Shown: positions 12,969-13,685 of the stretch, in pieces | Position numbering within the stretch: the first letter of the stretch is position 1 | Layout of the letters: the number at the start of each line of letters is the position of its first letter | Source: Escherichia coli | GTDB taxonomy: Bacteria > Pseudomonadota > Gammaproteobacteria > Enterobacterales > Enterobacteriaceae | Reading direction: 5' to 3' (one strand) | Assembly: GCF_003334255.1 (NCBI RefSeq) | Contig: NZ_QOWU01000073.1 | DNA: 18,664 nucleotides | Translations under genes and position numbers: made by a program | Notes under the pieces: model-generated | The model's database searches: none | Seen by the model: only the letters and a program-made list of their open reading frames with translations | Told to the model about the DNA's origin: nothing

Positions 12969-13685
12969 ATGTCTGCTTTGTATGAACGCTCACAGCTGAC
13001 GCAGGTGATGATTTCATCTGCCCCGGCGACTGCTGAAACTATGGATAAGGCGGAATATCTGCGCCTGGACTGCACCATCAAGGAAGTCCAGTTCACCGCC
13101 GGTCAGAAACAGGATATTGATGTGACCACGCTCTGCTCCACAGAGCAGGAGAACATCAACGGTCTGGGGGCGTCGTCCGAGATTTCCATGTCGGGTAATT
13201 TTTATCTGAATCAGGCCCAGAACGCCCTGCGTGATGCCTATGACAATGACACGGTGTATGCGTTTAAGGTGCAGTTTCCGTCCGGTAAGGGCTTTAAGTT
13301 CCTGGCGGAAGTGCGTCAGCACACCTGGTCATCCGGTACCAACGGCGTGGTGGCAGCAACGTTTTCACTGCGTCTGAAAGGCAAACCGGTGTCCTTTGTG
13401 GTACCGCTGGCGTTTGTGAAAAATCTGGATAAAACACTTACCGTGAATACCGGTGCGCTGCTGACAATGTCAGTCAGTGCCAACGGGGGAACGCCGCCGT
13501 ATAAATACGCCTGGAAGAAGGATGGTCAGCCGGTTGACGGGCAGACGACAGACACCTTCAGTAAGCCAGGTGCGCAGTCCGCTGATGCGGGGAAATATAC
13601 CTGCGTGGTGACCGATTCGGCAGAGAAAGCACAGAGTGTGACGTCTGTTGAATGCACCGTGACAGTGAGCGCAGCCGCCGGATAA
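12969..13685 (+). CDS. Major tail protein with C-terminal Ig-like domain
   Basis: Strong SD AGGAGG. Position between tail-completion and chaperone genes. C-terminal ~80 aa (PPYKYAWKKDGQPVDGQTTDTFSKPGAQSADAGKYTCVVTDSAEKAQ) have the Ig-like G-x-Y-x-C signature. Confidence 0.85.
   Translation: MSALYERSQLTQVMISSAPATAETMDKAEYLRLDCTIKEVQFTAGQKQDIDVTTLCSTEQENINGLGASSEISMSGNFYLNQAQNALRDAYDNDTVYAFKVQFPSGKGFKFLAEVRQHTWSSGTNGVVAATFSLRLKGKPVSFVVPLAFVKNLDKTLTVNTGALLTMSVSANGGTPPYKYAWKKDGQPVDGQTTDTFSKPGAQSADAGKYTCVVTDSAEKAQSVTSVECTVTVSAAAG

Follow-up and report, generated by a model that had tools for sequence, protein, structure and literature searches.

A tail tube gene with an in-frame I-set immunoglobulin-like domain in a lambdoid Stx-type prophage of Escherichia coli

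The DNA analyzed in this work, an 18,664-nucleotide stretch of an E. coli contig (NZ_QOWU01000073.1, assembly GCF_003334255.1) that we call the window, carries genes for lysis and for head and tail morphogenesis from a long-tailed lambdoid prophage. Of those that could be recognized, the genes for endolysin and spanin come first, and then those for an HNH endonuclease, the small and large terminase subunits, a 645-amino acid protease/major capsid fusion, the portal, and connector proteins, followed by the tail terminator, the tube gene, the G/GT chaperone pair, a 1080-amino acid tape measure, and a minor tail protein. The features of the tube gene and its immediate neighbors are listed in Table 1. 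No Rfam match or tRNA was found anywhere in the window. A functional RNA or a minus-strand gene under the tube gene region was considered and is not favored; the minus-strand ORFs that overlap this region encode 43–55 amino acids.

Table 1. Coordinates of the tube gene, its parts, and its neighbors (positions in the window).
Feature	Position	Strand	Basis or remark
Tail terminator gene, 5′ neighbor	12558..12902	+	PHROG 347, E 2e-17; YYZ-2008 gp58 annotated "tail terminator"
Shine-Dalgarno AGGAGG	12959..12964	+	4 nt 5′ of ATG 12969; direct reading of the sequence
Major tail (tube) protein gene	12969..13685	+	238 codons plus stop; ORF, PHROG 158, annotation
Tube-forming domain, residues 1–140, C-terminal end LRLKGKP	12969..13388	+	Pfam, Foldseek, alignment
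Variable linker, residues 141–147 (VSFVVPL)	13389..13409	+	Low identity, indels, end point of Ig-less relatives
Predicted I-set/C2-type Ig-like domain, residues 148–235 (about)	13410..13673	+	Pfam, T5 pb10 match, AlphaFold2, Foldseek
Strand C motif YKYAWKKDG, residues 178–186, core Trp182	13500..13526	+	W182 kept in 97% of full-length homologues
Strand F motif DAGKYTC, residues 206–212	13584..13604	+	D-x-G-x-Y-x-C "tyrosine corner"
Mosaic patch	about 13533..13710	+	Codons 189–238, intergenic spacer, first chaperone codons
Tail assembly chaperone G-like gene, 3′ neighbor	13700..14074	+	PHROG 344, E 9e-47; start as in YYZ-2008 gp60
Tape measure gene	14427..17669		1080 aa

The product of the tube gene matched the "major tail protein" family PHROG 158 with an E-value of 1e-117 in a profile search, and the last 78 residues alone produced a match to a PHROG major-tail family (1.5e-41). 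The stop codon occupies positions 13683–13685, and the translation of the segment 13449–13682 is TGALLTMSVSANGGTPPYKYAWKKDGQPVDGQTTDTFSKPGAQSADAGKYTCVVTDSAEKAQSVTSVECTVTVSAAAG. At the DNA level, the gene shares 99.7% identity with several Stx1a-converting phages, and the 238-amino acid product has the same sequence as YYZ-2008 gp59. A search for distant DNA relatives identified BP-4795 ORF64 and HK97 gp12, with 91.9% and 72.5% nucleotide identity, respectively. The records describe the gene either as "major tail subunit" (RefSeq E. coli genomes) or as "immunoglobulin domain-containing protein". Among 5426 complete E. coli genomes, 1245 (~23%) carry it, with up to eight copies per genome; the E. 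coli copies number 2907. A first-pass annotation of this DNA, made from the sequence without database searches, had identified the product as a major tail protein. This identification is borne out by the PHROG 158 match, the Pfam tube families, the Foldseek match to lambda gpV, and the gene order around the locus (terminator, tube, G/GT chaperones, tape measure). We consider it practically certain that the product of this ORF is the tube protein of an E. coli prophage of the long-tailed lambdoid Stx type and that, domain architecture included, the protein belongs to the HK97 gp12/BP-4795 ORF64 family.

Since the sequence AGGAGG is found four nucleotides before the ATG, position 12969 is favored as the true start of the gene over the starts placed further upstream in the YYZ-2008 (261 amino acids) and BP-4795 (281 amino acids) annotations, which we consider unlikely. 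An extension to those starts would also cross a terminator-like hairpin, which counts against both annotations. The hairpin, located at 12932–12956 in the 66-nucleotide gap between the tail terminator and tube genes, consists of CCCGC-CGCGT-GCGGG followed by TTTTTTATTA. In HK97, a "putative terminator" is annotated at the equivalent place, together with a second one after gp12 that lacks a counterpart in the window. A scan detected two terminator-like sites in the region versus 1.6 expected by chance, and the assignment of the hairpin as a terminator is only suggestive.

The tail terminator and tube ORFs are in the same frame, and the TGA at 12900–12902 is the sole in-frame stop before the ATG at 12969. 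Among public gene calls there are fused or extended terminator–tube versions of 374, 349, and 294 amino acids (P0002, P0009, and P0033; locus L001, positions 13932–14717; locus L010, positions 172–1017), the 294-amino acid version being the CP-933V "major tail subunit". Most likely, these calls and the upstream starts of YYZ-2008 and BP-4795 reflect indels in the T-runs at 12903–12917 or annotation choices rather than biology.

The first 140 residues of the protein are a lambda gpV-like tube domain. The Pfam matches to this N-terminal portion had weak E-values (Phage_tail_2, residues 50–141, 4e-5; Phage_TTP_11, residues 8–106, 6e-5; Phage_TTP_12, 2e-3). The best Foldseek match of the whole model was full-length lambda gpV (7t4f_A, E 7e-10), and the tube domain also matched tube-domain-only gpV chains (7t2e_A, 6e-6; 8k36_A, 1e-5) and the YDC107 tail core (9mfe_A, 3e-6). 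The comparison with full-length gpV gave an rmsd of 11–12 Å, and the way the AlphaFold model places the two domains relative to each other is unreliable. For the tube domain, an alignment of 36 sequences gave 46 invariant columns. The AlphaFold2 model includes a helix at residues 82–93 and a stretch of low pLDDT at residues 46–67. By analogy, this stretch would fall at the position of the long beta2-beta3 loop of lambda-type tube proteins, which mediates contacts between rings and has no ordered structure in the monomer (PMC8718954).

The first-pass annotation had also proposed that an Ig-like domain, encoded by 13449–13685, terminates the protein, and had quoted two motifs as its signature. 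The ORF and both motifs (YKYAWKKDG and DAGKYTC) were found where claimed, and an Ig-like fold was indeed predicted at the C-terminus, as indicated by Pfam, matches to solved structures, AlphaFold2, and Foldseek. The proposed interval does hold Ig domain sequence; its 5′ limit was misplaced. A start at 13449 misses strands A and A′, and the domain begins 13–15 residues (~40 nucleotides) earlier, at approximately 13410, which corresponds to residue 148 instead of 161. In the AlphaFold2 model, generated from the 36-sequence alignment, residues 150–235 form a beta-sandwich with pLDDT values of about 90–95. The predicted strands are A (148–151), A′ (156–160), B (165–172), C (179–184), a possible C′, E (196–199), F (208–215), and G (223–234).

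Pfam matches to this region included Ig_3 (residues 157–215, E 1.5e-8), I-set (residues 149–227, 2.8e-7), Ig_2 (3.6e-7), and ig (5e-4). When the sequence was searched against solved structures, the Ig domain of T5 pb10 was matched over residues 140–234 in two entries (8zvi_a, 4e-19; the pb10 C-terminal domain 5lxk_A, 2e-17), as were the tandem Ig repeats of Sf14 gp20 (9c2d_S, 7e-28, three repeats) and of 9ncf_S (2e-38). Many animal I-set/C2 domains ranked below these entries, and the match to T4 Hoc was marginal (5vf3_Z, E 0.019). The Ig domain by itself matched PHROG 2973, a "Hoc-like head decoration" family (E 5.9e-26), and PHROG 4069 also matched the Ig module. Foldseek aligned the Ig region with the Ig C2-type domain of human MALT1 (3bfo_A) over 90 columns, with a target-normalized TM score of 0.88 and an rmsd of 1.7 Å; other matches were titin, Dscam, and the capsid decoration Ig modules of Moo19 and N4. 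The kinship to Hoc-like proteins does not extend to the whole molecule. Identification as a Hoc-like head decoration protein was rejected because the N-terminal 140 residues are a tube domain and not a capsid-binding module.

The residues expected at the core of the fold are well conserved. The GG..PY motif (173–178) located just N-terminal of W182 is kept in 97–100% of the homologues, and within the strand F motif the conservation is 94% for D206, 97% for G208, 94% for Y210, and 94% for C212. Strand B (LLTMSVSA) does not include the canonical Cys, and the disulfide bridge between strands B and F is absent. The sole cysteines of the Ig domain are C212 in strand F and C229 in strand G, both conserved. 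The strand B–strand F pair is typical of I-set domains and not obligatory. Many intracellular members, such as those of titin, lack this disulfide, and therefore the missing strand B Cys was not treated as disqualifying for I-set/Ig_3 membership. We assign the predicted C-terminal domain to the I-set/Ig_3 type of the Ig superfamily on the basis of its profile matches, the modeled beta-sandwich, and the presence of the core Trp and the D-x-G-x-Y-x-C motif.

The first-pass annotation had named two Pfam classes, Big_2 and I-set. While the I-set class and its relative Ig_3 were found, Big_2 (PF02368), the class of the lambda gpV C-terminal domain and of T5 pb6, was absent from a Pfam table that listed domains down to E <= 10. 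BLASTP and hhalign alignments with lambda gpV were limited to the tube domain plus the linker or start of the C-terminal region and left the Ig domains unaligned. The Pfam table and the failure to align with the C-terminal domain of gpV rule out a Big_2 assignment. That the Ig "signature" is a chance resemblance, or that the domain is of the Big_2 class as in lambda gpV, could be argued from the missing strand B Cys and from the naming of Big_2 in the first-pass annotation. However, there are several independent significant matches, the sandwich is confidently predicted, and its TM score to a solved Ig domain is high, in addition to the Big_2 results just described; we give such readings a negligible probability. 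A SprB-repeat match (E 0.005, 16 residues) was interpreted as a local resemblance of the sequence GG..PY.Y.W and not as membership in that family.

The two domains are joined by a linker that differs markedly from both in conservation. Homologues are on average 25% identical in the linker, compared to 74% in the tube domain and 49% in the Ig domain. The Ig domain evolves faster than the tube domain, as expected of an exposed accessory module. The first-pass annotation had described the domains as fused in frame rather than by frameshifting, and the sequence agrees: the ORF runs uninterrupted from the ATG at 12969 to the stop codon. As both domains are encoded by a continuous ORF in a single frame, every subunit carries an Ig domain. 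A colinear tube plus Ig layout is shared by over 30 homologues, which come from Escherichia, Klebsiella, Enterobacter, Citrobacter, Pectobacterium, Dickeya, and Erwinia. An Ig domain appended by frameshifting, as in SPP1 gp17.1*, was rejected on the grounds of the single uninterrupted ORF (12969–13685) and these colinear homologues.

Natural relatives of 147–154 amino acids lack the Ig domain. They stop right after the LRLKGKP sequence, with several different short tails, and share 85–94% identity with the tube domain of HK97 gp12. The five loci examined for two of these relatives (P0100 and P0107) have a syntenic tail module in which the chaperone gene starts 8 nucleotides past the stop codon, and a tblastn search for Ig remnants found none in any frame of these loci (best E 0.79, 11 residues). 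The short distance to the chaperone gene and the tblastn result led us to reject the idea that these relatives gain an Ig domain by frameshifting. The existence of Ig-less relatives with syntenic tail modules implies that the tube domain of this family is self-sufficient and that the Ig domain is an add-on. Judging from these comparisons, the Ig domain is probably not required for tube assembly, although a tube domain working alone is demonstrated for the Ig-less phages only.

In two diverged homologues of another kind (P0097 and P0119, 242 amino acids), the latter close to the Klebsiella variicola protein P0062, the Ig domain is out of frame, in both cases right after the sequence Y.YVWK(K/R). 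Judged from the protein sequences only, the shift looks like a one-nucleotide change in a putative A-run encoding W-K-K. Its origin could be natural loss of the Ig domain as the prophages decay, a sequencing error in a homopolymer, or slippage. The corresponding WKK codons in the window are TGG AAG AAG, which are not slippery.

The Ig domain is kept by purifying selection and is not decaying. The dN/dS ratio was 0.2–0.4 for the Ig domain overall and 0.09 in its most divergent part, compared to 0.01–0.07 in the tube portion. Residues W182, D206, G208, Y210, C212, and D216, which belong to the core, are conserved in 94–100% of the sequences. The most divergent part is a mosaic patch with sharp bounds that covers the end of the tube gene and the beginning of the chaperone gene. 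In comparison with BP-4795 and Stx2_14040, nucleotide identity is 69% inside the patch and 96–100% in the flanks, and a 9-nucleotide indel is present in the intergenic spacer within it. The values of dS (2.2, saturated), dN (0.20), and dN/dS (0.09) were not those expected if positive or diversifying selection had caused the divergence, and recombination between old alleles was preferred as an explanation. The patch is a recombination joint inside the Ig domain that has introduced an old functional allele. One cluster of sequences (P0003) looks like an intermediate hybrid patch allele.

The presence of I-set domains on tube proteins of the HK97 gp12/BP-4795 ORF64 type is already known, having been catalogued since 2006 and tabulated in 2022. 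HK97 gp12, BP-4795 ORF64, and PY54 gp12 are listed as I-set examples of Ig-bearing tube proteins (PMC9022992, Table 3, after Fraser et al. 2006), and an Ig-like domain of one type or another is present on about 70% of the tube proteins of enterobacterial siphophages (PMC9022992). The natural Ig-less relatives, the purifying selection on the Ig domain, and the localized mosaic patch are the mildly new points added here. BP-4795 ORF64 and HK97 gp12 share with the protein encoded in the window the tube domain, the short linker, a single in-frame I-set domain, and an equal gene position. The differences from both are only allelic. In the comparison with BP-4795 ORF64, the C-terminal half of the Ig domain is divergent; HK97 gp12 shares 81% amino acid identity in the tube domain and 52% in the Ig domain and lacks the four-residue C-terminal tail AAAG.

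Other phage proteins resemble the tube protein in part. Lambda gpV has the same two-domain layout, tube fold, and late-operon position upstream of G/GT, but its Ig domain belongs to the Big_2 class instead of I-set, and the two sequences are marginally similar, in the tube domain alone. SPP1 gp17.1* also carries a C-terminal Ig-fold decoration on a siphophage tube protein, which is dispensable for infectivity (PMC8718954). In SPP1, however, the decoration is an FN3 domain added by a +1 programmed frameshift to about one in four subunits, whereas in the case described here it is an I-set domain present, with no frameshift, in all subunits. The closest solved single Ig domain by sequence is that of T5 pb10 (5LXK, 8ZVI), with which it has in common GGT.PY.YAW.KDG and DAG.Y. 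The pb10 domain is flexible and exposed on the virion surface, but it is joined to a capsid-binding helical domain, which places it on the head and not on the tail. T4 Hoc and Sf14 gp20 share the I-set class, and adhesion or environment-sensing roles have been proposed for them; they differ in having several tandem Ig domains on a capsid-binding module.

These comparisons are compatible with the following proposal. If the solved tails of lambda, T5, and YSD1 are taken as a guide, the tube domain would assemble into hexameric rings that enclose the tape measure protein, with the Ig domain projecting from the exterior of the tube. Lambda has an 853-amino acid tape measure and 32 rings. Scaling from lambda, a tape measure of 1080 amino acids would correspond to about 40 rings and about 240 copies of the Ig domain per virion. 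The Ig domain would be an accessory, non-essential decoration that contacts glycans at surfaces (LPS, capsule, or mucus) in a weak, multivalent, and reversible manner, and these contacts would keep the virion near the cells, resulting in higher adsorption efficiency. The first-pass annotation had made general statements in the same sense, namely that such domains decorate the tail tube, are often dispensable, are sometimes added by frameshifting, and are thought to bind carbohydrates weakly; these agree with the literature (PMC8718954, PMC9022992). In the same sources, carbohydrate adhesion by such Ig domains is a proposal awaiting experimental verification (PMC8718954, PMC9022992). Taken as a whole, the explanation that combines a tube protein, an in-frame I-set Ig domain, and an accessory adhesion role is in our view very probable. 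Glycan adhesion as the actual role of the Ig domain, which follows the view in the literature and is drawn from analogy, is advanced tentatively, with a confidence that falls a little short of even.

Lambda suggests a different function. Removal of its Big_2 Ig domain, which lies parallel to the tube axis, contacts the neighboring subunit, and adds an intra-ring contact, lowers activity 100-fold (PMC8718954). In view of this loss and of the subunit contact, a structural contribution is possible for the Ig domain in the window as well. A mainly structural domain would contact neighboring subunits and stabilize or stiffen the tail or aid its assembly, as has been proposed for the C-terminal domain of gpV, and both the status of gpV as the best whole-protein structural match and the purifying selection on the Ig domain would suit such a function. 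Nonetheless, relatives whose tube domains are so close to that of HK97 gp12 do without the Ig domain in tail modules that are otherwise intact, the Ig class is not that of gpV, and the linker is poorly conserved and has indels. In addition, an evolution much faster than that of the tube domain together with piecewise recombination is hard to square with a tight, co-evolved interface. The Ig-less relatives, the selection, and the patch are more in keeping with an accessory domain that is modular and exposed than with a structural element tightly built into the tail, and we regard a mainly structural role as unlikely.

An accessory adhesion domain could also have its ligand outside the bacterial cell. 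The Ig domain might bind glycans of the host environment, such as mucin in gut mucus ("bacteriophage adherence to mucus", an idea demonstrated with T4 Hoc), placing the phage near E. coli. The host is an intestinal bacterium, the domain is of the I-set class as in Hoc-type decoration proteins, its sequence is closest to head decoration proteins (PHROG 2973, T5 pb10, and Sf14 gp20, with the E-values given above), and mucin binding by T4 Hoc is cited in PMC9022992. However, binding by tail tube I-set domains is proposed by analogy only, and the similarity to T4 Hoc itself is marginal. Mucus binding would be a special case of the adhesion model and not an alternative architecture. Its probability is, in our estimation, low, and somewhat lower than that of a mainly structural role.

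The position of the mosaic patch raises a further idea about the accessory adhesion domain. Strands C′ to G, which make up the C-terminal half of the domain (~13533–13682), could be an exchangeable cassette that is swapped by recombination among otherwise near-identical Stx-phage tail modules, with alleles of different glycan specificity. This is a long shot, which we rate lower still than mucus binding. If it were true, the tube-borne Ig domain would be a second, tunable determinant of host or niche specificity beside the tip fiber. With regard to the general question of what tube-borne Ig domains do, the locus is a convenient natural experiment, as it combines close Ig-less relatives with two divergent outer-half alleles in nearly isogenic Stx-phage backgrounds.

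Several other features of the prophage were observed. The chaperone pair downstream of the tube gene has a canonical -1 programmed frameshift site, with the slippery sequence A AAA AAG at 14065–14071 directly before the G stop codon (TAG, 14072–14074). Open between 14071 and 14379, the -1 frame holds a T-like ORF, and PHROG 14766 (224 amino acids) matches G and T as one protein. Upstream, the 645-amino acid "major capsid protein" (6864–8801) matched a head maturation protease family at residues 1–281 and major head protein families at residues 183–642, and the occurrence of both matches in one ORF identifies it as a protease–capsid fusion. The capsid gene lies 5′ of the portal gene (TerL, capsid, portal), an unusual order for lambdoid or HK97-like phages.

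The portal region consists of two ORFs, 9013..10377 (454 amino acids) and 10374..11435 (353 amino acids), with an ATGA overlap. In YYZ-2008, the region is annotated as a single 861-amino acid "portal protein". The split form is also present in the distant relatives L005 and L006 (444 plus 347 amino acids), and the PHROGs for the region comprise one family with the fused form (2271) and another that stands alone (1289). Within the ORF that follows the portal gene, positions 10538–10969 are a 162-nucleotide (54-codon) in-frame tandem repeat with 2.7 copies and a 92% match. Judging by the 161–162-nucleotide offset in the blastn alignment, YYZ-2008 has one more copy of this repeat.
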